64,000 nucleotides of DNA from an uncultured Ignavibacteriales bacterium (GTDB lineage Bacteria; Bacteroidota; Ignavibacteria; Ignavibacteriales; Ignavibacteriaceae): contig CAWIAG010000004.1 of the NCBI GenBank assembly GCA_963834015.1, positions 1,749,926 to 1,813,925 on the forward strand, in the 5' to 3' direction. The position numbers and the translations under genes are program-made. This document shows, in pieces, positions 1,192 through 10,267 of the stretch (the first letter of the stretch is position 1; the number at the start of each line of letters is the position of its first letter). A model generated the notes under the pieces. That model did no database searches. It was not told where the DNA came from and saw only the letters and a program-made list of their open reading frames with translations.

Positions 1192-2439
1192 ATGAATAAA
1201 AAAAGAATTGGCGTCGGGATTATCGGCGCAGGCTTCAATGCCAGGTTTCATATTAAATCATGGGTGTCTGTCAGGGATGCGGATATTTTAGGGATATATG
1301 ACAGGAACCCGGAAACTGCTTCCGCCGCTGCAACGCTTGCAAAAAACCTGCGGGTGGGCGAGGCAAAAGTTTTTAAGTCGATTACTGATATGGCCGCCGA
1401 TCCGGGTATTGATGCGCTTTGGATTTGTTCGCCTAATTTTACACGCATAGAAGTGATGGAAGAAATTACTAATGCGGTTTTAACAGGTAAAGCTGATCTT
1501 ACCGGTATCTGCTGCGAAAAGCCTTTGGGAAGAAATGCAGCGGAAGCAGGAAAGATGCTTGAGCTTGTTCAAAAAACGAAACTGCTGGACGGGTATCTTG
1601 AAAACCAGCTTTTTTCTCCCGCAATTATCCGCGGCAGGGAAATTATCTGGGCAAGAGGCGCACGGTTCGCAGGCCGTCCCTACCTGGCAAGAGCGGCTGA
1701 GGAACACAGCGGCCCGCACAAACCATGGTTCTGGGAGGGAGAATTGCAGGGCGGCGGAGTTCTGAATGATATGATGTGCCATTCTGTTGAGGTTGCCAGG
1801 TTTTTATTAACGGAACCCGGTAAACCAAGGAATTCAATTACCCCGGTTAGTGTTTCCGCCCATGCAGAATGTTTAAAATGGCAGAGGCCCGGGTATGCCG
1901 AAATCCTTGCAAAAAATAGTAACGGTACAACAGATTATATAAACCGTCCGGCAGAAGATTATGCGCATGCTCTTGTTGAGTATAAGGATGAGAACGGGAA
2001 AAAACTTATCGTCGAAGCCACAACCTCATGGGCGTTTGTGGGTGCAGGTTTACGGCTGAGTATGGAATTGCTCGGGCCCGAATACTCGATGGCTGTGAAT
2101 ACTTTGGATTCGGATCTTAAACTTTTCCTGAGCAGAAATATCAAAGCGGATGCGGGTGAAGATTTAATTGAAAAGCAGAATGCGGAAAGCGGACTTATGC
2201 CCGTTGTTAGCAATGAAGAGAATACTTACGGATACGATCTTGAAAACAGGCACATGGTAAAATCATTTATTGAGGGTGTAAGGCCAAGCGAAAACTTTAG
2301 CGACGGCTTTAATGTAACGCAGCTTCTGATGACGGCATATATGAGCGCCGAACAGGGTAAAACTATCCCGTTCCCTCATCCGGATCTCCAAACTTTTATC
2401 CCTCTTGTTGCCAAAGGTAAATGGAATCCCGGGAAATGA
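1192..2439 (+). CDS. Gfo/Idh/MocA family oxidoreductase (cytoplasmic form)
   Basis: N-terminal Rossmann motif IGVGIIGAGFNARFH and the CEKPL motif typical of the family. No signal peptide. An SD-like aggaaag precedes the ATG. Confidence 0.85.
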   Translation: MNKKRIGVGIIGAGFNARFHIKSWVSVRDADILGIYDRNPETASAAATLAKNLRVGEAKVFKSITDMAADPGIDALWICSPNFTRIEVMEEITNAVLTGKADLTGICCEKPLGRNAAEAGKMLELVQKTKLLDGYLENQLFSPAIIRGREIIWARGARFAGRPYLARAAEEHSGPHKPWFWEGELQGGGVLNDMMCHSVEVARFLLTEPGKPRNSITPVSVSAHAECLKWQRPGYAEILAKNSNGTTDYINRPAEDYAHALVEYKDENGKKLIVEATTSWAFVGAGLRLSMELLGPEYSMAVNTLDSDLKLFLSRNIKADAGEDLIEKQNAESGLMPVVSNEENTYGYDLENRHMVKSFIEGVRPSENFSDGFNVTQLLMTAYMSAEQGKTIPFPHPDLQTFIPLVAKGKWNPGK

Positions 2440-2443
2440 ATAA

Positions 2444-2551
2444 TGCGAATTAACACGAATTAGGTTAATACGAATTTACACGAATTATCATTACGAATTT
2501 CCACGAATTATCATTACGAATTTCCACGAATTAGGACGAATTCACGCGAAG
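2444..2551 (+). repeat. Periodic array of about 9-10 units ending in (a/g)cgaatt, spaced 10-15 bp (array A)
   Basis: Read directly: gcgaatt, then acgaatt eight times, then a degenerate gcgaag. It starts 5 nt after the stop codon of the upstream gene. Confidence 0.9.
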
Positions 2552-2700
2552 TATCAGTAGGTGTATATTAAATTAGAGCTTTCATAAAAAATGAAATACA
2601 TTCTTAAAAAGTCCCCTCTTGGGAGGGGTGCAGGGGTGGGTCGAAGCGATTATATTTATAAAACCTCTGCAATTATTTTTATTCGTATAATGAATATACT

Positions 2701-3010
2701 GTAATGTTAGTAGGTACCCATATAAGCAGAACAATTACAAGAAATAAAAACATTACAGGTACATAATTTATCGACATGTAGAGAAGGGGCATGCCCTCCC
2801 GATAAGAAATTGGGACAGGCTGTCTTTACGATGCAATGTGTAATGTTGGAAGGCTCCCATAAAGCAGAACTTTTATAAAATATTTAACACACTACAAACG
2901 AAGTTAATACAATCTAATGTGAATTTTGTTCTAAGTCCCAGCGGGACGAAATATTTATAGCATAACAAACCCCAACAAACCTTTTCCTGAATCCCGGAGG
3001 GATGACATAA
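2701..3010 (+). repeat. Mosaic cluster of short hairpin modules, in the order X'-Y-X-Z
   Basis: X' 2701-2748, Y 2749-2833, X 2841-2880, Z 2934-3010. Each has a reverse-complement counterpart at 6451-6680, and Y has one at 9444-9511. Stems taatgtt..aacatta, gtccc-agc-gggac and atccc-gga-gggat are visible. Confidence 0.8.
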
Positions 3011-3106
3011 TAACGGATAAGTACCATGTCTACGCCTAATTATTCACAATGCCGCTTAATAAAATTCTTAATATCCGCGTAACTTAAATGAATTATTAAG
3101 TGTACA

Positions 3107-3304
3107 TTATTCAATCTTAATTTTCTTCTTAAAATCTTCTTCAGATATATTGGAATCTTGTTTCCTGTCTTCTATGATTTTAATACATTCATTGTCTTCA
3201 ATTATCTCAAGCATCTCTTTGTACACTTTATAATCAACAAGAACACTCTTAGGCTTGCCGCTTTTATTATAAAATATTTTCTCTCTGGTTTTTAACTCGA
3301 TCAT
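3107..3304 (-). CDS. Small antitoxin-like protein (Phd/YefM- or RelB-like), apparently orphan
   Basis: 65 aa. KPKSVLVDYKVYKEMLEIIEDNECIKIIEDRK resembles the N-terminal strand plus acidic helix of type II antitoxins. No intact toxin ORF lies downstream. Confidence 0.45.
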   Translation of the reverse strand: MIELKTREKIFYNKSGKPKSVLVDYKVYKEMLEIIEDNECIKIIEDRKQDSNISEEDFKKKIKIE

Positions 3305-3420
3305 TTTATGTCTCCTGAACTATCGGAAAAAATAATTTATTTAACCTCAAAATCAAATTATATCAATGCTATAAGCATTATGATCATAACAATCCTGAAT
3401 AACTTAAAAATAATTCTGTG

Positions 3421-3556
3421 ATTGAATTACAATGAATGACAACCGAATGACCATCGAATTACAACGAATGACCATCGAATTACAATGAATGACCATCGAA
3501 TGACAACGATTGACCATTGAATGACCATGATTAACCATCGAATGACCATGAATTAT
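3421..3556. repeat. Array of about 12 units with a 10-11 bp period, gaatgaccatc / gaattacaac (array B)
   Basis: Read directly: gaatgacaacc gaatgaccatc gaattacaac gaatgaccatc gaattacaat gaatgaccatc gaatgacaac gattgaccatt gaatgaccat gattaaccatc gaatgaccat gaatt. It lies about 50 nt past the 3' end of the GH30 gene. Confidence 0.9.
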
Positions 3557-3608
3557 GGGCTACGCTTCAGGCAATCAATTCCCCGCAATTTATTTAAAAA
3601 TAAACTAT

Positions 3609-5072
3609 TTAATACACCAGAGTCTGTATTGCGTGCGGCGGAATAGTTACTGCCGCTTCTTTTAATCCGGCGTACAGGCTATAATGTATCTCATTGCCGC
3701 TTTGATTCATTACTACCGTTGCCATCTTACCATTTGGATTTAAAAATGATGCAGTCAGCAGGGCGCTCCTGTTTGAGACGGCGCTTACTCTTCGGGCTCC
3801 CGGGCGTATGAATTTTGAGAAGTGGCCGATATAAAAATAAGATGGTGTGTAAATTAAATTACCGGTTTTTATGTCTGCATGGACAGGTGCAAAACAATAG
3901 TTGCCCACATGATTAGGACCGCCGTTTTCATCAAGAAGAATATTCCAATCCGTCCAGCCGCATGTCCCGTTATTAAGATCATTAATCATTGAGCGGCCGT
4001 AACGCTCTGCATTAGGCCAATAAAAATATTTGGAGGAATCAAATTCTTCTACACAGCCTTCGGTAAATAATATGTTCTTGCAGGGATAATTCTCCCTTAC
4101 GTGTGCAATGTTATCAAACAGTGGCTCGCTGCCCGTCCACGTTTCATACCAGTGGAAACCAAGTCCCCATGCGTATTTTGCGGCGGCGGAATCGGAATAA
4201 ATTACATCAGCCCAATGATTTGCAAAATCCCTGTTATGATCCCAGATTATAATTTTTTTATCCCCAAGGCCGTGATTTTCCATTGCCGGGCCTAAATAGT
4301 TTTTCAGGAAGTCTCTTTCTTCTTCAGCGGTGTAATTACATGATTCAAAACTCTGTACTGCCAATGGTTCATTCTGAATGGTAATTCCCCAAACGGGAAT
4401 ACCCTCCGCCGCATAGGCTTTAATAAATTTTGTAAAGTAATCAGCCCATGATTGGTAGTATTCCGGTAAAAGTTTGCCGCCTTTTAACATGCTTTTATTG
4501 TCCTTCATAAATGCAGGCGGGCTCCACGGGCTGGCGAAGATTGAAATTTCTCCCCCCGCTTTTTCTATTGCCTGTTTGATCAAAGGAATGCGGAATTGTT
4601 TATCATGCTCAATATTAAAGGTTTTCAGTTCTTTATCTTTCGCAGTAACGTAGGTATAGCTCTCGCTGCTGAAATCGCAGCTATTAATGTTTGTACGCAT
4701 CAGTGAATAGCCAATGCCGTTCTGTTTATCGTAATAAGCATTTAATAGTTCCTGCTGTTTATCCGTGGGTAATTTTGCAAAGACTTCCGCAGCAGCATCT
4801 GTAACTGCGCCTCCTATACCAAGAATTTCCTGGAACTGTTTCCCGGGATTTACAAATACGGCGGTTTCAGTTTCAAGAGGCGGGCGAGCTTGTGTAAAAT
4901 CTAAAACGGAAGTTTTGGTAAGCCGTAAGTTTGTACTGTCCGCAGTTGTATAAACAATTATGTTTTCCCATTCGGCAGAGAATTGCTGCTGTGCAAAGAG
5001 CTGCTGAATAATTGATGAACACAGGATCAGCAGGAAAAGGGCCGGGAGAAGGTGGTAGGGGTGTTTTAACAT
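3609..5072 (-). CDS. Glycoside hydrolase family 30 (glucosylceramidase-like), secreted
   Basis: N-terminal signal peptide. GIGGAVTDAAAE, then WGITIQNEP (acid/base Glu context) and ILFTEGCVE (nucleophile Glu context), comparable to the GBA motifs ENEP and SEAC. Confidence 0.85.
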   Translation of the reverse strand: MLKHPYHLLPALFLLILCSSIIQQLFAQQQFSAEWENIIVYTTADSTNLRLTKTSVLDFTQARPPLETETAVFVNPGKQFQEILGIGGAVTDAAAEVFAKLPTDKQQELLNAYYDKQNGIGYSLMRTNINSCDFSSESYTYVTAKDKELKTFNIEHDKQFRIPLIKQAIEKAGGEISIFASPWSPPAFMKDNKSMLKGGKLLPEYYQSWADYFTKFIKAYAAEGIPVWGITIQNEPLAVQSFESCNYTAEEERDFLKNYLGPAMENHGLGDKKIIIWDHNRDFANHWADVIYSDSAAAKYAWGLGFHWYETWTGSEPLFDNIAHVRENYPCKNILFTEGCVEEFDSSKYFYWPNAERYGRSMINDLNNGTCGWTDWNILLDENGGPNHVGNYCFAPVHADIKTGNLIYTPSYFYIGHFSKFIRPGARRVSAVSNRSALLTASFLNPNGKMATVVMNQSGNEIHYSLYAGLKEAAVTIPPHAIQTLVY

Positions 5073-5103
5073 TGTTTAGCTTTCGTTATTGAATTAAATA
5101 ATA

Positions 5104-5205
5104 TGCGAACTAGAATTAATACGAATTTACAATAATACGAATTTCCACGAATTATCTTTACGAATTTTCACGAATTAGGACGAATTTACACGAAGTAGAT
5201 TATGT
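5104..5205 (+). repeat. acgaatt periodic array (array C)
   Basis: gcgaac, then acgaatt six times, then acgaag, with 10-14 bp spacing. It sits between the 3' end of brnA and the 5' end of the GH30 gene. Confidence 0.85.
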
Positions 5206-5318
5206 TCGGTGTAGAAGACGGGGCATGCCCTGTCTTTACGGGAGATACGTGAAAAAATTAAAGATGATATAACAATAAAAAATTAGTATGTGATGCAGCA
5301 GGTTGTTAAAGGAAGATA

Positions 5319-5528
5319 CTATCGCCAATGTATATTAGGTTTCCTGTTTTTTTCAGCGCATTCTCTTAGGTACATATTAATTAAATTTTGATAAGAGATA
5401 TCGGTTTCTGAAGCTAATTTTTTAAAATATTCCACCGTGTCATTCTCTATACGAATTGATATTTGCTTCTTGAGTTTCTTTATATAAGGATTACTAGACG
5501 ATTTTGAAAAATCATATTCTTTCTTCAT
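5319..5528 (-). CDS. brnA: BrnA antitoxin (CopG/RHH-like)
   Basis: MKKEYDFSKSSSNPYIKKLKKQISIRIENDTVEYFKKLASETDISYQNLINMYLRECA matches the BrnA pattern. I prefer the ATG at 5528, which leaves one unpaired nt (5529) between it and the brnT stop codon. The track ORF extends to 5630, and ATG 5543 is another possible start. Confidence 0.85.
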   Translation of the reverse strand: MKKEYDFSKSSSNPYIKKLKKQISIRIENDTVEYFKKLASETDISYQNLINMYLRECAEKNRKPNIHWR

Positions 5529-5529
5529 T

Positions 5530-5820
5530 TTATTTTGCCTCATCGTAATATTTACTTTCAGATTTTGTTGCTTTTCTTGCGGAAATAATCCGGATAATTT
5601 CATCATTCTCTTTATAATTATGCACCACAATAAGAAGATTTAAATTATTAGAAATACCTAAAATAATATATCGTTCTTCTTTGATTGAATGATCAGGATC
5701 AGATATAAGTCGTGCATTGCCATCAAAAAACACGGTCTTAGCTTCTTCAAAAGAAATTTTATGCTTTTTTATATTCGCAAGATTTTTATTTTGATTCCAT
5801 TGGAAACGAATATTATCCAT
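5530..5820 (-). CDS. brnT: BrnT toxin (DUF497 ribonuclease toxin)
   Basis: FQWNQNKNLANIKKHKISFEEAKTVFFD ... IRIISARKATKSE is the canonical BrnT/DUF497 pattern. The toxin-first gene order is typical of brnTA. Confidence 0.9.
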   Translation of the reverse strand: MDNIRFQWNQNKNLANIKKHKISFEEAKTVFFDGNARLISDPDHSIKEERYIILGISNNLNLLIVVHNYKENDEIIRIISARKATKSESKYYDEAK

Positions 5821-6263
5821 AATGATAATATAATGATATTATAATTATCTACAAAATTCTTATAAAAGGAAATTTATAGAATATGAATTCGCGTTAATGC
5901 AAATTTACACGAATAAGGACGAACCTGCATGCCGGCAGGCAGGTTTGAGCAAAGGGAAGAGGAGTGCTTGTCCCAAAGTGCTGAAATGTTTGATGATGGA
6001 TAAAATGGCGTACAATGAGTGATTCATTTCAACAGCAATTCGATCCGCCGTTCTCCAGCCTCCGGTCTCCGTTCTGCTGTCTCCGGTCTCCTCTTTATTT
6101 ACAAACAATATTAAAAATAAATAAATAAATTACACTGCTAATTGCCCTGCGATTATTCAAATTTAAAAACTCTGGTAAAAAAATCAGGAGATTTTAAAAA
6201 TTAAAATATTTAAATTTGCACCCGTGTTATTTACATTAAAATATATGCTAACGATTTCTTGTC

Positions 6264-6320
6264 CATTCGTGAAAATTCGTCCTAATTCGTGAAAATTCGT
6301 ATTAATATAAATTCGTATTC
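6264..6320 (-). repeat. acgaatt periodic array in inverted orientation (array E)
   Basis: On the + strand: cattcgt, then aattcgt four times, spaced 10-17 bp. Confidence 0.8.
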
Positions 6321-6450
6321 CTTTTAAGGAAATTATATCTTTGACATTCTGTTTGACGTATTGAAATACATACGGTGAAGTGTCTTGAATAAATTTTTAT
6401 ATGGGAAATCTGTTTTATTTTTTGCGGCCTACCGATAATTTTACATCTTA

Positions 6451-6680
6451 CATCGTAAAGACAGCCTGCCTATCCCACTTGCCCCGCAGAGTCGGTGGCC
6501 CCGTCTCTACAAAGTGATAAATTATGTACATGTAATGTTTATCATTATTTATAAAAGTTCTTATTTTATGGGAGCCTTCCAACATTATACTTAAGTCCTA
6601 TGTCACCCCGCCGGGGTTCAGGAGAAGGTTTGTTGGTGAGATTTTTTTGCTATAAACATTTCACCCCTCCGGGGTTTGGA
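6451..6680 (-). repeat. Mosaic hairpin-module cluster: reverse complements of modules Y, X and Z
   Basis: rc(Y) 6451-6541, rc(X) 6545-6588, rc(Z) 6596-6680. By-eye alignment to 2749-3010 gives roughly three quarters identity. A more degenerate Z-like copy follows at about 6860-6990. Confidence 0.8.
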
Positions 6681-7357
6681 TATCGTTAATTCAGGTTTGT
6701 GAAATAAGGAGGGAAATAATTATCAATGTTATTGCTAACATTACAATTTTAAGGTAGCTGAATAACGGCAGAGCCGTGAAATGCTGGTAGAATTAAAAGG
6801 AAAAGACAAACACAAGTTAGCATCGTAGATGCGGCATGGTGAATTTGATTACGAAACACCTGTCACCGGAATGCGGTTTAGGAAAGGTTTGATTAGGAAT
6901 TATTGCTACACCCATGCCGTCCAGATTGGACTTAGCGCAACGGATCCGGTTAATGAATCGCTGCATTTCGGAGTGAGTTCTCAGCCCTTTTTAGGCGAAA
7001 AAATTACCAGGATTTTATTAAATTTTAAATTTTAAAAAAACTCATGTTAGCTCCAATAGCATAAACTCTTGATTTTATTAACTTTAAATTTTTATTTTCC
7101 TTGAGCTAAGCTGGATTAAATGATTTGTTTTTAATAAGTTAAATGATTTAACACCTCTTGTTTTTTTTCGCTTTTTTAAAGGTTAAATCCTTTGTATTCA
7201 ATAACTTAATTGATTTTTTAGTGTCAATTTAGGCCCTTTTTATGATATCATTTTGGCATTTTTGGTGTTATTTCCCGTCATATTATGATATTTTTATCTG
7301 TATATATTATAAGGGTTTAGCAAACAGCATAAACCGGAAATTCAAAAAAATAATCCA

Positions 7358-8218
7358 ATGTTAATGAATCAAAATATTCAGGAAATAATCGGACAAAGAT
7401 ATTCATGCCGTTTTTACAACCATGAACCTATTCAGAAAGTGCATCAGCAGGAACTCAGAAAGTTCCTGGAGACTCTGCACACCGGCCCTTTGGGAACACA
7501 TGTTCGTCTTGAACTTGCCGCCGCTGAACCGGAAGAGAGACAATCTTTAAAAGGACTAGGCACATACGGCGTTATCAGGAATCCTGCAGGTTTTATTATA
7601 GGTACGGTAGAACAGGCGCCAGGGGACCTTGAAGATTACGGATACGTTCTTGAGCATGCAATTCTTACAGCTACCGGTATTGGTTTAGGTACCTGCTGGC
7701 TTGGCGGCCCTATTACAAAAAGCAGTTTTGCAAAAAAAATTTCTTTACGGGATAATGAAACAATGCCTGCCGTAGCTGCCGCAGGATATATCGAAGAGAG
7801 AAAAGGAAAAGACGGTGAGATTATTAACTACAGAAGACCGGCCCGCTTGCCTTCAGAACAGTTATTCTTCGCTGATGCATTCGGCAGTGCGTTAATTATG
7901 GAAACTGCAGGCGAATATTCGCAGCCTCTTGAAATGGTCCGTATAGCCCCGTCAGCTTCCAACAAACAGCCGTGGAGAATTGTCAGGATAAATAATGCGT
8001 GGCATTTTTTTCTTCGGCGGACAAGAGGGTACGGCAAAGGGACAGTGTTATTCAGAATTCTCAGGCTCGCCGATCTCCAGCGTGTTGATATGGGTATTGC
8101 CATGTGCCATTTTGAACTCACCGCCCGTGAGCTTGGATTAAACGGCGTTTGGGTTATCGATGATCCAAAAATTCAAATGCCCGGAGGAACGGAATACACG
8201 GCAACGTGGAAAGTTTAA
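7358..8218 (+). CDS. Nitroreductase-family protein
   Basis: RYSCRFY near the N-terminus and RIAPSASNKQPWRIV are typical of the nitroreductase fold. Confidence 0.75.
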   Translation: MLMNQNIQEIIGQRYSCRFYNHEPIQKVHQQELRKFLETLHTGPLGTHVRLELAAAEPEERQSLKGLGTYGVIRNPAGFIIGTVEQAPGDLEDYGYVLEHAILTATGIGLGTCWLGGPITKSSFAKKISLRDNETMPAVAAAGYIEERKGKDGEIINYRRPARLPSEQLFFADAFGSALIMETAGEYSQPLEMVRIAPSASNKQPWRIVRINNAWHFFLRRTRGYGKGTVLFRILRLADLQRVDMGIAMCHFELTARELGLNGVWVIDDPKIQMPGGTEYTATWKV

Positions 8219-8220
8219 GT

Positions 8221-8260
8221 GCGGATTCACACGATTTGTTAATACGAATTTGCATTAATC
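8221..8260 (+). repeat. Short acgaatt-type array (array F)
   Basis: gcggattcacacgatttgttaatacgaatttgcattaatc begins 3 nt after the stop codon, in the same position as array A. Confidence 0.6.
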
Positions 8261-8336
8261 TTTTCCAGGTATTATTTTACGGCTACAAAAGTAGCCATAT
8301 GGTTACAATAGTATCCATAAACAAAACTGATGAAAA

Positions 8337-8945
8337 ATGATTGTTAACAAATTATTAGAAAAATTATTTAGTGCGCCAAGTAATATTTCTGTAATCAGGG
8401 TGCTGAATGAGAGAGTTACGGGAATAACAGGCAGAGAGACTGCAAGGCTTACCAATCTTACACATCGTTCGGCTCTAAAAGCCCTTACTAATCTGGAAGA
8501 GCTTGGCGTTGTATCTCGCATAACAGGCGGTAGAGATCATATATTTACTCTTAACAGGCAGAAATATATTTCTAAAGAGATCATCTACCCGATTTTTGAA
8601 GCTGAAAAAAAATTTAATACAGCTATCAGATCTTCTTTAAAAAAACAATTATCAAAGTTAACTGATAGCATTATTGTATATGGTAGCGTTGCCCGTAAGG
8701 AAGAAACAATATCAAGTGATTATGATGTCTGCATTGTTTATAACGGGCATTTAAATGATATTGAAAATATTGTCTTAAAACTAAGGGACCGGCTTCATGA
8801 CCAATATTCAATTCAACTTGCTCCGATTTATATCAGAACCGCCGAATTTAAAAAACGTGCACGTAAAAAACTACCCCCGGTGAATGATATAGTTAATGAA
8901 GGAGTGGTAATAAGCGGTAAATCAATTCATAAGCTTCTGCAATGA
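8337..8945 (+). CDS. Winged-HTH plus minimal nucleotidyltransferase (MNT-like antitoxin candidate)
   Basis: N-terminal wHTH-like segment (ETARLTNLTHRSALKALTNLEELGVVSR). The NTase motif is YGSVARKEETISSDYDVCIVY (GS..R...DxD). Confidence 0.7.
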   Translation: MIVNKLLEKLFSAPSNISVIRVLNERVTGITGRETARLTNLTHRSALKALTNLEELGVVSRITGGRDHIFTLNRQKYISKEIIYPIFEAEKKFNTAIRSSLKKQLSKLTDSIIVYGSVARKEETISSDYDVCIVYNGHLNDIENIVLKLRDRLHDQYSIQLAPIYIRTAEFKKRARKKLPPVNDIVNEGVVISGKSIHKLLQ

Positions 8946-9343
8946 AACAACCCGTAAAAAAGATTGATGTAAATAAATATTTGGATTTTATAAAAGTTTC
9001 CGATGACTTTTCAAACGGAAGTGAATCTGCATATACATTCGAATACTATAATGCCGCCGGAGTTTTAGTAATTCATGCTGCAATTGCGCTTGCTGATGCT
9101 GTTACAATCAAACTATCCGGCAAAAAATGCAGCGGTGAAAGTCATTATGATATTATAGACTTATTAAGACTTGTCACTCCACCATCGCAGAATAAAAATA
9201 AATCATTAGATCAGTTCAAAAAATTGATTGATCATAAAAATAAAGTTTCATACTATGGTGATATCTATTTTAAGAAAGATGTAGATAAATTATTAAATCA
9301 TTTCAAAAGGTTTAAATCCTGGGCCGGTATGTTGCTAATGTAA
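8942..9343 (+). CDS. HEPN-like helical protein, partner of the nucleotidyltransferase
   Basis: Its ATGA start overlaps the upstream gene by 4 nt. 133 aa and helical. GESHYDIIDLL and LIDHKNKVSYYG resemble PF05168-type HEPN helices, but I find no canonical Rx4-6H motif. Confidence 0.5.
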   Translation: MKQPVKKIDVNKYLDFIKVSDDFSNGSESAYTFEYYNAAGVLVIHAAIALADAVTIKLSGKKCSGESHYDIIDLLRLVTPPSQNKNKSLDQFKKLIDHKNKVSYYGDIYFKKDVDKLLNHFKRFKSWAGMLLM

Positions 9344-9443
9344 AATACTATCTTTAATTGCATTAAGTTCTAAAAGAGATATTGACTTGATTTTACTATA
9401 ATTTAAACCGGCAGGTTTGTAAGAAAGGCATGAGCTTATTTTA

Positions 9444-9511
9444 AGCGTAAAGACATCCTGTTTGTCCCGCTTGTCCCGCCAAGGCGGTGGTCCGATTCCT
9501 TATCGGGAGGG
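9444..9511 (-). repeat. Third copy of module Y (cgtaaagaca...ggtgg..ccg...cttatcgggaggg)
   Basis: By-eye alignment to 6451-6515 and to the reverse complement of 2776-2833. Confidence 0.65.
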
Positions 9512-9598
9512 TTAGGCGAATCACGAATTTTTTTCCCCTCTCTTTATTAGGAGAGAGGGTGATTTTGTATCGTCATGAAACAATAAATGTGTGAATGA

Positions 9599-10267
9599 TT
9601 AATTCAAAAGCTCCATGGGAAATGGTTTGCCATGTCCAGGGTACACCATATTTATTTTTAGCTCGTGAAGTTTTTCTAAACTTTTTGTCAGTTCATCATG
9701 ATCCTGAATTATATTTGCCGATTCCGGTTTTTTGTTATTAACAAGTGTATCTCCTGAAAACAAATCGCCCGCGCCGGTTAATATGCCGATTGAGCCTTTT
9801 GTGTGTCCGGGTAAATGTATAACTTTTGCATTGAACCCATATTCCTGCAGGCTCTGGCCGTCATGCAGATAGATATCCGGTGTAAACTGATCCGTATTTA
9901 TTTTTTTCTTCTTTAATTTTCTTAAAAAAATAATAATTGCAAACATGATTTTTCTTGAAAGGTGTTTTACTTTTCTTTTTCCGGGAGAGCCTGATTGTAT
10001 GATTGAATAATCATCTTTGTGCATTGCTATAACGGCATTATATTTTTCCTTAAGTTTTTTACAATTGCCGGAATGATCCCTGTCCCCGTGTGTTAAAATT
10101 ACCAGTTTTAATTTGCCGGGAAGGCAGCCGTTGGAAATTAATTCTTTTTCCAATTTTCCCCATTGCATGGGTAATCCGGTATCTATTAAAATAAAGCCCG
10201 TGCCCAGCTTAAAAAGATAAGCGTTTACAAAGGAGAGTGGAATGGTTTTTATATTTTCGTCAATCAT
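9599..10267 (-). CDS. MBL-fold metallo-hydrolase
   Basis: ILIDTG, then LTHGDRDHSG (HxDxDH-like variant of the MBL HxHxDH motif), HLPGHTKGS, and PGHG at the C-terminus. Confidence 0.8.
   Translation of the reverse strand: MIDENIKTIPLSFVNAYLFKLGTGFILIDTGLPMQWGKLEKELISNGCLPGKLKLVILTHGDRDHSGNCKKLKEKYNAVIAMHKDDYSIIQSGSPGKRKVKHLSRKIMFAIIIFLRKLKKKKINTDQFTPDIYLHDGQSLQEYGFNAKVIHLPGHTKGSIGILTGAGDLFSGDTLVNNKKPESANIIQDHDELTKSLEKLHELKINMVYPGHGKPFPMELLN

Follow-up and report, generated by a model that had tools for sequence, protein, structure and literature searches.

Repetitive extragenic palindromic (REP) sequences and REPINs with their RAYT gene, reportedly described by Nunvar (2010) and by Bertels and Rainey (2011), combine a single small nuclease/transposase-type gene flanked by inverted short repeats with a far larger number of gene-less singlets and inverted doublets between genes, in genome-specific variants. 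Miniature inverted-repeat transposable elements (MITEs) and the pneumococcal BOX elements are multi-copy, gene-less inverted pairs with cores of 0–200 bp and variable internal modules, located between genes and often within operons. The intervening sequence (IVS) in the 23S rRNA of Coxiella and Leptospira carries the S23p open reading frame (ORF), and its excision by RNase III has been shown (PMC4990558). In Beggiatoaceae, Cyanobacteria and Bacteroidetes, direct repeats of the heptamer TAACTGA occur between genes, often just 5′ of start codons (MacGregor 2015, PMC4679880). Here we analyze a 64-kb stretch of DNA from an uncultured Ignavibacteriales bacterium (contig CAWIAG010000004.1), referred to as the window, in which arrays of a short repeat recur at near-helical spacing, and we compare these arrays with the ends of a one-gene cassette that encodes a GxxExxY protein. 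By analogy, the TAACTGA repeats may be regarded as the closest published counterpart that we found, and REPIN–RAYT systems, MITEs, and rRNA IVSs as the closest mechanistic ones.

The conserved unit of the arrays is the octamer CACGAATT with two or three free bases, set within the decamer CACGAATTNN. Seven arrays lie within positions 2445–9530, all confined to a 7-kb accessory stretch with genes for a RelB-like protein, GH30, BrnT/BrnA, a nitroreductase, and an MNT-HEPN pair; no such array was found in the remaining 54 kb of the window or over the 4.8 kb that precede the window. A preliminary description, made from the sequence, had reported that (a/g)cgaatt recurs at 10- and 13-bp spacing across 2444–2551, which we recovered as nine exact units and one degenerate unit, and had placed further arrays at five positions, all of which were found again; the array at 3424–3555 was absent from it and is added here. 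We read the window arrays as orphans, namely copies, without the gene, of the repeat arrays that form the ends of a widespread cassette with GxxExxY as its single gene, and assign this reading a probability of about 0.6.

The cassette has three parts. Two to nine sense decamers, (C)ACGAATTNN, begin 0–12 nt past the stop codon of a host gene and reach or overlap the ATG of the second part, a ~124-aa PD-(D/E)XK nuclease gene of the GxxExxY family. Inverted decamers then begin at or overlap the stop codon of that gene, and the next host gene follows directly (for example, …CACGAATTATG…TAATTCGTG… at locus L119). Complete cassettes sit inside host operons in the direction of transcription, co-directional with both neighbors in 11 of 11 contexts having called or annotated neighbors, and show no obvious ribosome-binding site of their own.

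The association with GxxExxY was obtained by clustering the ORFs near arrays across ~240 loci from genomes and metagenomes. The genome set alone, clustered within 1.5 kb of arrays, gave no enriched family; the association emerged with the larger metagenome set, in which GxxExxY was the only enriched neighbor family and the top cluster (20 ORFs in 19 loci) was the ~124-aa protein itself. No transposase family was enriched near the arrays and no regulator gene was associated with them. Polarity is strict around 23 non-redundant GxxExxY genes: the upstream 90 nt contain 62 sense and 6 antisense CGAAT units, while the downstream 95 nt contain 2 sense and 64 antisense units. Among 27 distinct cassettes with the order sense array, ORF, antisense array, GxxExxY occupies 16, and the remaining ORFs are singletons.

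The protein belongs to TIGR04256 ("GxxExxY protein", E = 2.8e-41) and to PF13366 (PDDEXK_3), with invariant catalytic D…E-x-K residues and GxxExxY motif, and its AlphaFold 2 model is confident (pLDDT 91.7). The family is large, with 2308 clusters at E of 1e-5 or better for one query, and the protein had no match in PADLOC, PHROGs, Protein Data Bank sequences, or the cultured-phage collection. The sole functional note on the family found in the open-access literature reads "Unknown; multiple transfers" (PMC3424549), and the same literature held no earlier description of a GxxExxY-array cassette. An array-bracketed GxxExxY gene looks like an undescribed selfish cassette.

Genes retrieved independently of arrays gave a similar picture. 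Six GxxExxY genes fetched by protein identity all lie co-directionally inside polysaccharide-biosynthesis operons, often beside MNT/HepT pairs, with inverted arrays 3′ in 6/6 and sense arrays 5′ in 5/6. Cassette-bearing polysaccharide operons on contigs L275 (819–2480), L281 (from 4575), and L311 (1–1353) also contain a DegT/DnrJ aminotransferase ORF of ~540–553 aa with an N-terminal PemK-toxin-like domain (precomputed Pfam), with MNT/HepT pairs and AbiEii genes interspersed. Eight further GxxExxY genes, found by tblastn in a plasmid collection, come from cultured organisms and lie between co-directional housekeeping genes, at sites that include radA|FAD-dependent protein, ade|mannose-1-P guanylyltransferase, and fabD|fabG. 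The inverted architecture is clear in four of these eight, with lineage-specific motifs: CACAGAGGA in Bacteroides finegoldii (three sense, three inverted), CACAGAGA in Bernardetia, CACGCGAAG in Sphingomonas, and CACGGATTCG in Treponema. Variants at independently fetched genes include CACAGAGG, CACGCGAA, and CACGGATT. Both arms are always of one variant, so the motif of one arm covaries with that of the other.

At two orthologous sites, the arrays occur where the gene occurs and are missing where it is missing. The junction between radA and the gene for the FAD-dependent protein is empty in Parabacteroides distasonis (TAA, 13 nt, ATG), while in B. finegoldii it holds a sense array, GxxExxY, and an inverted array (~465 bp). 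Likewise, the fabD|fabG junction is empty in Sphingomonas paeninsulae and filled in S. parapaucimobilis. Both empty sites came from the plasmid collection, and none was found among the loci fetched before it. On contig L281, a truncated second copy of the cassette with its own inverted arrays adjoins an intact one. The preliminary description had suggested, for example, a nucleoid-protein or a termination/insulation element; that proposal is not borne out, as the arrays instead track GxxExxY as its inverted flanks and are gained and lost together with it at orthologous sites.

The window arrays are related to these cassettes by their motif, and they match the proposed family of terminal arrays in being runs of two or more CACGAATT-type octamers, phased at 9–13 bp (mode 10), with free bases as spacers. 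Their style, TTAGGACGAATT, is also found in peat-bog contigs that carry GxxExxY (L171 and L223), which makes action in trans on the window arrays conceivable. The 64 kb of the window and the 4.8 kb before it contain neither the gene nor a remnant of it, and the window arrays are accordingly filed as orphans. Array A and the array at 8221 resemble "left ends" of a cassette because they are sense and lie 5 or 2 nt past a host stop codon.

Arrays without the gene also predominate elsewhere: of ~300 loci, only 40 contain GxxExxY, with 53 genes or fragments between them, and gene-less inverted pairs are likewise in excess. Among the matches listed in our genome scan, described below, 22 pairs of neighboring arrays have the CAC end outermost with a gap of at most 200 bp, while no pair of the opposite polarity occurs below 288 bp. 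The free bases (NN) between the units of the two arms share 36% identity, near composition chance (n = 14), and are not complementary, so the symmetry is one of motif orientation and not of a continuous hairpin. Copies from the same genome, as in Cloacimonadales, a Chloroflexia metagenome-assembled genome (MAG), and the "binchicken_co124_365" MAG, share these free bases and short outer flanks, which indicates one dispersed repeat family per genome and not independent sites. The arrays are mostly intergenic. The preliminary description had called for a census relative to gene ends, and its expectation was upheld in part: the CAC end very often lies 0–12 nt past the stop codon of a same-strand ORF, but no single orientation rule relative to flanking genes was seen in genomes, and between co-directional genes 33 arrays are antisense and 14 sense.

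In other genomes, terminal inverted repeats (TIRs) surround a short non-coding core in multiple copies, as in MITEs. The differences from MITEs and BOX elements are that no consistent target-site duplication was seen at the junctions inspected, that the termini consist of repeated octamers, and that the gene is not a known transposase. Compared with REP/REPIN systems, the protein is a PD-(D/E)XK GxxExxY protein and not an HUH/Y1 transposase, the repeats are AT-rich, 10-bp-phased octamer runs and not GC-rich hairpins with a 5′ GTAG, and the gene is multi-copy and inside operons. The GTAG-type hairpins that the window also contains (2778–2830 and others) are an element separate from the octamer arrays. 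A Phycisphaerales MAG contig (L090) contains a 189-aa IS200/RAYT-like ORF (c7_L090, …HWHFVVWP…) between inverted AACGAATTAAA-type arrays; this single case, identified by eye, may connect a Y1 transposase with repeats of a similar kind.

The distribution of the arrays was assessed with two scans: one that required three ACGAATT units at gaps of 3–6 and covered a single genome per species (at least 120 loci), and one of metagenomes for the window-type core CACGAATTAGGACGAATT (at least 120 loci). Among the matches listed in the genome scan are 160 arrays, 127 with variable spacers and 33 perfect tandems of 10–13 bp; the latter, including both archaeal matches, are probably chance microsatellites that contain the heptamer. 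A typical variable-spacer array has three to four units. In these 127 arrays, C precedes ACGAATT in 67% of units, although C was not imposed, and a spacing of exactly 10 bp accounts for 209 of 341, although 10–13 bp were allowed equally. Among the matches listed, hosts include Bacteroidota, Ignavibacteria, Chlorobium, Calditrichia, Cloacimonadota, Planctomycetota, Verrucomicrobiota, Chloroflexota, Acidobacteriota, Nitrospirota, Omnitrophota, Desantisbacteria, and Saccharibacteria, with few Pseudomonadota and Firmicutes and zero Actinobacteria. The cross-phylum conservation that the preliminary description had proposed to check is thus present, with 10-bp-phased arrays in many phyla and in phage contigs.

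The octamer itself is specific. In viral contigs, three strict copies of CACGAATT gave 22 loci, compared with 1, 2, and 5 for three permuted octamers, whose matches are nearly all perfect tandems, and no other hexamer makes such arrays in the same loci (~1 Mb). BLAST of array A against plasmid and phage collections returned nothing relevant, and a literature search with the raw sequence returned primer matches only. These results bear on whether the arrays are ordinary micro- or minisatellites that arose by replication slippage and have neither origin nor function in common. Such an origin would account for the perfect tandems (33 of the 160 listed arrays) and for a difference of one 23-bp unit between strains. 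It is contradicted by the recurrence of one octamer with variable spacers across phyla, by the ~4- to 20-fold rarity of permuted octamers, and by polarity, gene association, and empty and filled sites, and we consider it extremely improbable. The preliminary description had also argued against random slippage, and the preference for exactly 10 bp agrees with it.

A reading compatible with orphaned cassette ends is that the arrays act as RNA. The sense and inverted arrays would pair in the operon transcript, forming a long stem of separate paired segments, with the ORF looped out and its AUG buried; such a stem could limit or couple translation of the nuclease or excise the cassette from host mRNA, with orphan arrays being inert or long-range pairing partners. 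Folds of the whole cassette (z = −3.4 and −4.1) join the 5′ array to the 3′ one, in the minimum-free-energy as well as the centroid structure, and bury the AUG. The co-directionality of the cassettes in all 11 contexts, the lack of an obvious ribosome-binding site, and the use of one motif variant in both arms per lineage are consistent with this, as is the placement of phage arrays, which are strictly sense and 0–20 nt 5′ of an ATG in 19 of 26 cases, against none antisense. Excision of the Coxiella IVS with its S23p ORF by RNase III offers a precedent (PMC4990558), and the two inserts are alike in being selfish, ~0.4–0.5 kb long, with one small ORF and inverted ends predicted to pair in RNA, inside a host transcription unit and found across phyla. 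They differ in that the IVS occupies an rRNA helix and the GxxExxY cassette an intergenic spacer of a protein operon, and in that the IVS product is a four-helix bundle and its ends are not repeat arrays. Against a stem, the NN positions are non-complementary, leaving only 7–8-bp cores to pair; a hairpin role would permit both polarities, whereas only CAC-outermost pairs occur among the matches listed; the long one-directional arrays of the window cannot make local stems; and Rfam gave no match at gathering score. On balance, an RNA role is possible but rather unlikely.

In phage contigs, arrays are always sense and precede diverse genes, which raises the alternative that they are portable expression signals for acquired genes, either a promoter/operator for a conserved regulator or a Shine–Dalgarno-independent translation enhancer (an unstructured A/U-rich, C-rich, G-poor leader). 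Sense arrays directly 5′ of diverse phage genes and of GxxExxY, the A/T-rich, G-poor composition, and the analogy with TAACTGA repeats 5′ of start codons (PMC4679880) speak for such a role. It leaves unexplained the inverted arrays past stop codons, the gene-less inverted pairs, and the antisense orphans (33 vs 14 sense), and the 10-bp unit fits no sigma-70-like geometry and has no associated regulator gene; we judge it improbable. The TAACTGA repeats resemble the arrays in being a short intergenic motif in distant phyla and in occurring together with "assemblages" of other heptamers (for the arrays, at window 6048–6091 and in contig L098), but they are contiguous 7-mers and not 10-bp-phased octamers, and no architecture of flanking gene and inverted arms has been reported for them.

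Further arrangements were seen in the viral contigs. At L135 2740–2820, L146 2362–2440, and L132 210–290 (~53–55% GC), a bipartite architecture places three CACGAATT units before the start codon and, ahead of them, three CACGGATT or CACAGATT units, connected by a T-rich linker with TGAA at its end. Other cargo than GxxExxY is found at L126 5849–6667 and L128 ~2077–2700, where phage ORFs of 247 and 185 aa, respectively, have a sense array 5′ and inverted ATTCG/ATCCG arrays directly 3′; the 247-aa ORF has no NCBIfam match.

The arrays of the window are listed in Table 1.

Table 1. Octamer arrays of the window, with their strand, composition, and position relative to neighboring genes.
Feature	Position	Strand	Composition	Location
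Array A	2445–2552	+	10 units of (C)ACGAATT: nine exact RCGAATT and one degenerate GCGAAGT	Starts 5 nt past TGA (2437–2439) of GFO/IDH/MocA gene (1192–2439)
Variant array	3424–3555	+	Units CGAATGACCAT/CGAATTACAA, period 10–11 (21-bp pair)	Between GH30 stop (3609) and RelB-like start (3304), both minus strand
Array B	5104–5197	+	6 exact ACGAATT units and degenerate end units	Between GH30 start (5072) and BrnA stop (5319)
Array C	5884–5925	+	Degenerate copy of array 3′ end (…AATTTACACGAATAAGGACGAACC)	Just 5′ of BrnT start (5820, minus strand)
Array D	6265–6316	-	4 units, inverted vs A and B	
Degenerate array	8221–8260	+	Units GCGGATTCA CACGATTTG …ATACGAATTTG	2 nt past nitroreductase stop (TAA 8216–8218); 77 nt before MNT nucleotidyltransferase start (8337)
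Two-unit remnant	9515–9530	+	GGCGAATCACGAATT	Adjoins REP-like hairpin copy, then terminator-like hairpin (9536–9559)

Arrays A, B, and D have a common 3′ end, TACGAATTTYCACGAATTAGGACGAATT, which marks them as copies of one element differing in unit number; the 62-nt 3′ part of B is that of A (94% identical), and D is 97% complementary to B over 36 nt. The variant array at 3424–3555 is the highest-scoring one (Tandem Repeats Finder score 154). By the same program, array A has a 23-bp higher-order unit (3.7 copies, 90% matches), and its CGAAKT spacings are 10, 15, 10, 13, 10, 13, 10, 10, and 10. The RCGAATT heptamer is at chance level across the window (31 observed, 29.3 expected), with 19 of the 31 concentrated in three clusters (2445–2542, 5121–5186, and 6274–6316). 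Within the window, the inverted relation is confined to A and B versus D, 1–3.7 kb apart. Viewed on the minus strand, D is sense and is followed by four antisense arrays (C, B, 3424–3555, and A), and the genes between D and A are BrnTA, GH30, and the RelB-like gene. The preliminary description had placed two arrays just past plus-strand stop codons. This is correct for array A; for the array at 9515 the nearest plus-strand stop is at 9343, and it is the array at 8221 that qualifies instead. Its judgment that the arrays are not CRISPR-like stands, as the units are 7–8 nt and the spacers 2–6 nt, compared with the 23–50-nt repeats and unique spacers of similar length that define CRISPR.

The preliminary description had taken the spacing near the helical repeat to suggest phased protein binding or intrinsically bent DNA. 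With 10-bp phasing recurring across phyla, phased protein binding remains a reasonable physical reading. As a model for a small protein coating array A, plasmid centromeres or iterons may be the best physical analogy: R1 parC/ParR and pSK41 parC are ~100 bp of direct repeats phased at 10–11 bp, sometimes with 20–23-bp double units. Those centromeres are single loci beside par or rep genes, whereas the arrays are dispersed and inverted around a nuclease gene; near the arrays no par or rep gene was found, the neighbors in the window being a GFO oxidoreductase, GH30, toxin–antitoxin genes, and a nitroreductase.

The other part of that proposal, host chromatin or insulation, in which phased nucleoid-protein sites or curved DNA terminate or insulate transcription after genes, fared less well. 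The strong phasing, the many arrays abutting stop codons, and the lack of a strict orientation relative to flanking genes in genomes all agree with it, and AATT cores narrow the minor groove. It does not explain the conserved octamer and TIR-like polarity, the tight bracketing of GxxExxY and joint presence or absence with it, or the restriction to 7 accessory kb of a 64-kb window. The arrays are not terminator-like, and the four terminator-like sites in 2300–9700 all lie outside them. In addition, the 10/13 alternation of array A would be out of helical phase; at 23 bp per pair (~2.2 helical turns), we infer that it would produce writhe and not a planar bend. We regard this explanation as quite improbable.

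Other known elements were compared by inspection and rejected for a mismatch in spacing or in key bases: sigma-54, sigma-70, and extracytoplasmic function (ECF) promoters, the DnaA box, parS, integration host factor (IHF), CodY, CtrA, and OmpR-type boxes, rut sites, MuA end sites, and attC sites. An integron/attC assignment also lacks the R″/R′ structure, and a toxin–antitoxin operator was discarded since the toxin–antitoxin proteins of the window are not common to other array loci. Array A closes all six reading frames, yet long open stretches persist, which makes this a weak property, and a role in providing stops in all three frames was dropped for the same reason. The whole window gave no match to Rfam 15 at gathering score, and a search of 2300–9700 at E below 5 gave one chance-level match only; no tRNA genes were found at the window arrays.

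Several observations weigh against orphaned cassette ends as the origin of the window arrays. The window is tied to the cassette by similarity in sequence and architecture, and the docking of GxxExxY on arrays is putative. The window and its 4.8 kb of upstream sequence lack the gene, as noted above, and a 97%-identical strain has the same arrangement of the locus except for repeat-unit changes, with no recent movement seen. No consistent target-site duplication and no sharply defined terminus were found at the inspected junctions; because each empty site and its filled counterpart belong to different species, they cannot fix where exactly the element ends. To our knowledge, PD-(D/E)XK proteins this small are not known as transposases. 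The sense arrays of phage contigs precede their diverse genes with no GxxExxY gene, and the simple inverted pattern is missing in four of the eight plasmid-collection genes (Persicobacter, with an ambiguous pattern; Gemmatirosa, with CGCGGAT arrays; and Fusobacteria and P. nigrescens, with direct-repeat flanks containing similar units). A 43%-identical Prevotella protein is paired with CACGAATT and a 55%-identical one (L202) with CACAGAT, so the motif type does not simply track protein similarity. Finally, most loci were chosen for containing arrays, which biases the frequencies, and the array-independent sample comprises 14 contexts.

The sister-strain contig L304 (97.1% identical) is without exactly one 23-bp unit of array A, and the unit order of 3424–3555 is scrambled in it. 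The window arrays are probably relic or trans-dependent ends; they mark joints between accessory genes (RelB-like, GH30, BrnTA, nitroreductase, and MNT-HEPN), and most of their present change consists of repeat units gained or lost. Two Logan short-read contigs, L123 and L124, both end within array A at position 2508, 69 nt past the GFO stop codon; two independent assemblies that stop inside the array indicate that arrays break assemblies. Upstream of the window (L122 1–4800, compared with L304), the region 5′ of a nucleoside symporter differs between the strains, one having an AbiEii/DUF1828 block and the other having HNH, DprA-like, and Mrr genes further upstream, so the window starts inside a variable defense-type island.

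A second repeat family, the REP-like hairpins, lies in the same stretch at 2778–2830 (+), 5213–5242 (+), 6455–6512 (−), and 9446–9493 (−). These hairpins start with GTAGAGAC/GTAGAAGAC, have a variable GC-rich apex, and finish with GTCTTTAC; the RNA folds of two copies have z = −3.6 to −3.9, and the copies adjoin arrays with no fixed order or orientation. Three non-coding modules occur in the same order in 2748–3009 and 6451–6662, each individually inverted (2748–2833/6540–6451, 2841–2879/6587–6548, and 2948–3009/6662–6599), an arrangement that a single inversion cannot produce. Arrays A and D show the same order-kept, unit-inverted pattern. Tandem heptamers of the CCGGTCT/CTCCAGC type occupy non-coding 6048–6091 of the window, and similar runs (CTCCGGC and CGATTAC) lie at L098 3960–4090, inside a 560-bp array-bounded non-coding element on a Chlorobium contig. 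A hairpin, AGTCCCCTCTTGGGAGGGG, is found at 2613–2628, 3′ of array A, and a near-identical one, AGTCCCCTTTAGGGG, lies 3′ of an CACGAATT array at ~480 of a Cloacimonadales MAG contig (L101).

For the cassette itself, the repeated octamers would be the paired ends of the element, and we prefer to read them as phased docking sites for the GxxExxY nuclease, which would probably be oligomeric. The docked nuclease may promote insertion, excision, or exchange of the cassette, and orphan arrays and gene-less pairs would then behave like non-autonomous passengers of the MITE or REPIN type. More broadly, and tentatively, GxxExxY with inverted phased arrays may constitute a hitherto unrecognized class of minimal mobile element that is promoter-less and rides on operons, with a nuclease that docks on the ends, a cruciform, or an RNA stem to move or exchange the cassette, and with orphans as non-autonomous copies and portable recombination joints.

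Together, these findings place GxxExxY in a definite DNA architecture, for which both an empty and a filled state are known, and provide a testable mobile-element hypothesis in which Bacteroides finegoldii, Flavobacterium granuli, Sphingomonas parapaucimobilis, and Treponema saccharophilum are available as cultured carriers. They also explain assembly breaks and spurious ORFs in metagenome bins of the Fibrobacteres–Chlorobi–Bacteroidetes (FCB) and Planctomycetes–Verrucomicrobia–Chlamydiae (PVC) groups, among them HRG/LCV-type peptides and the TNYHE and IRGNS pseudo-peptides that the preliminary description had correctly pointed out. The arrays may bear on the rearrangement of surface-polysaccharide operons and accessory islands. 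If the arrays are indeed portable joints, they could shuffle accessory and polysaccharide-locus genes across bacterial phyla and phages.

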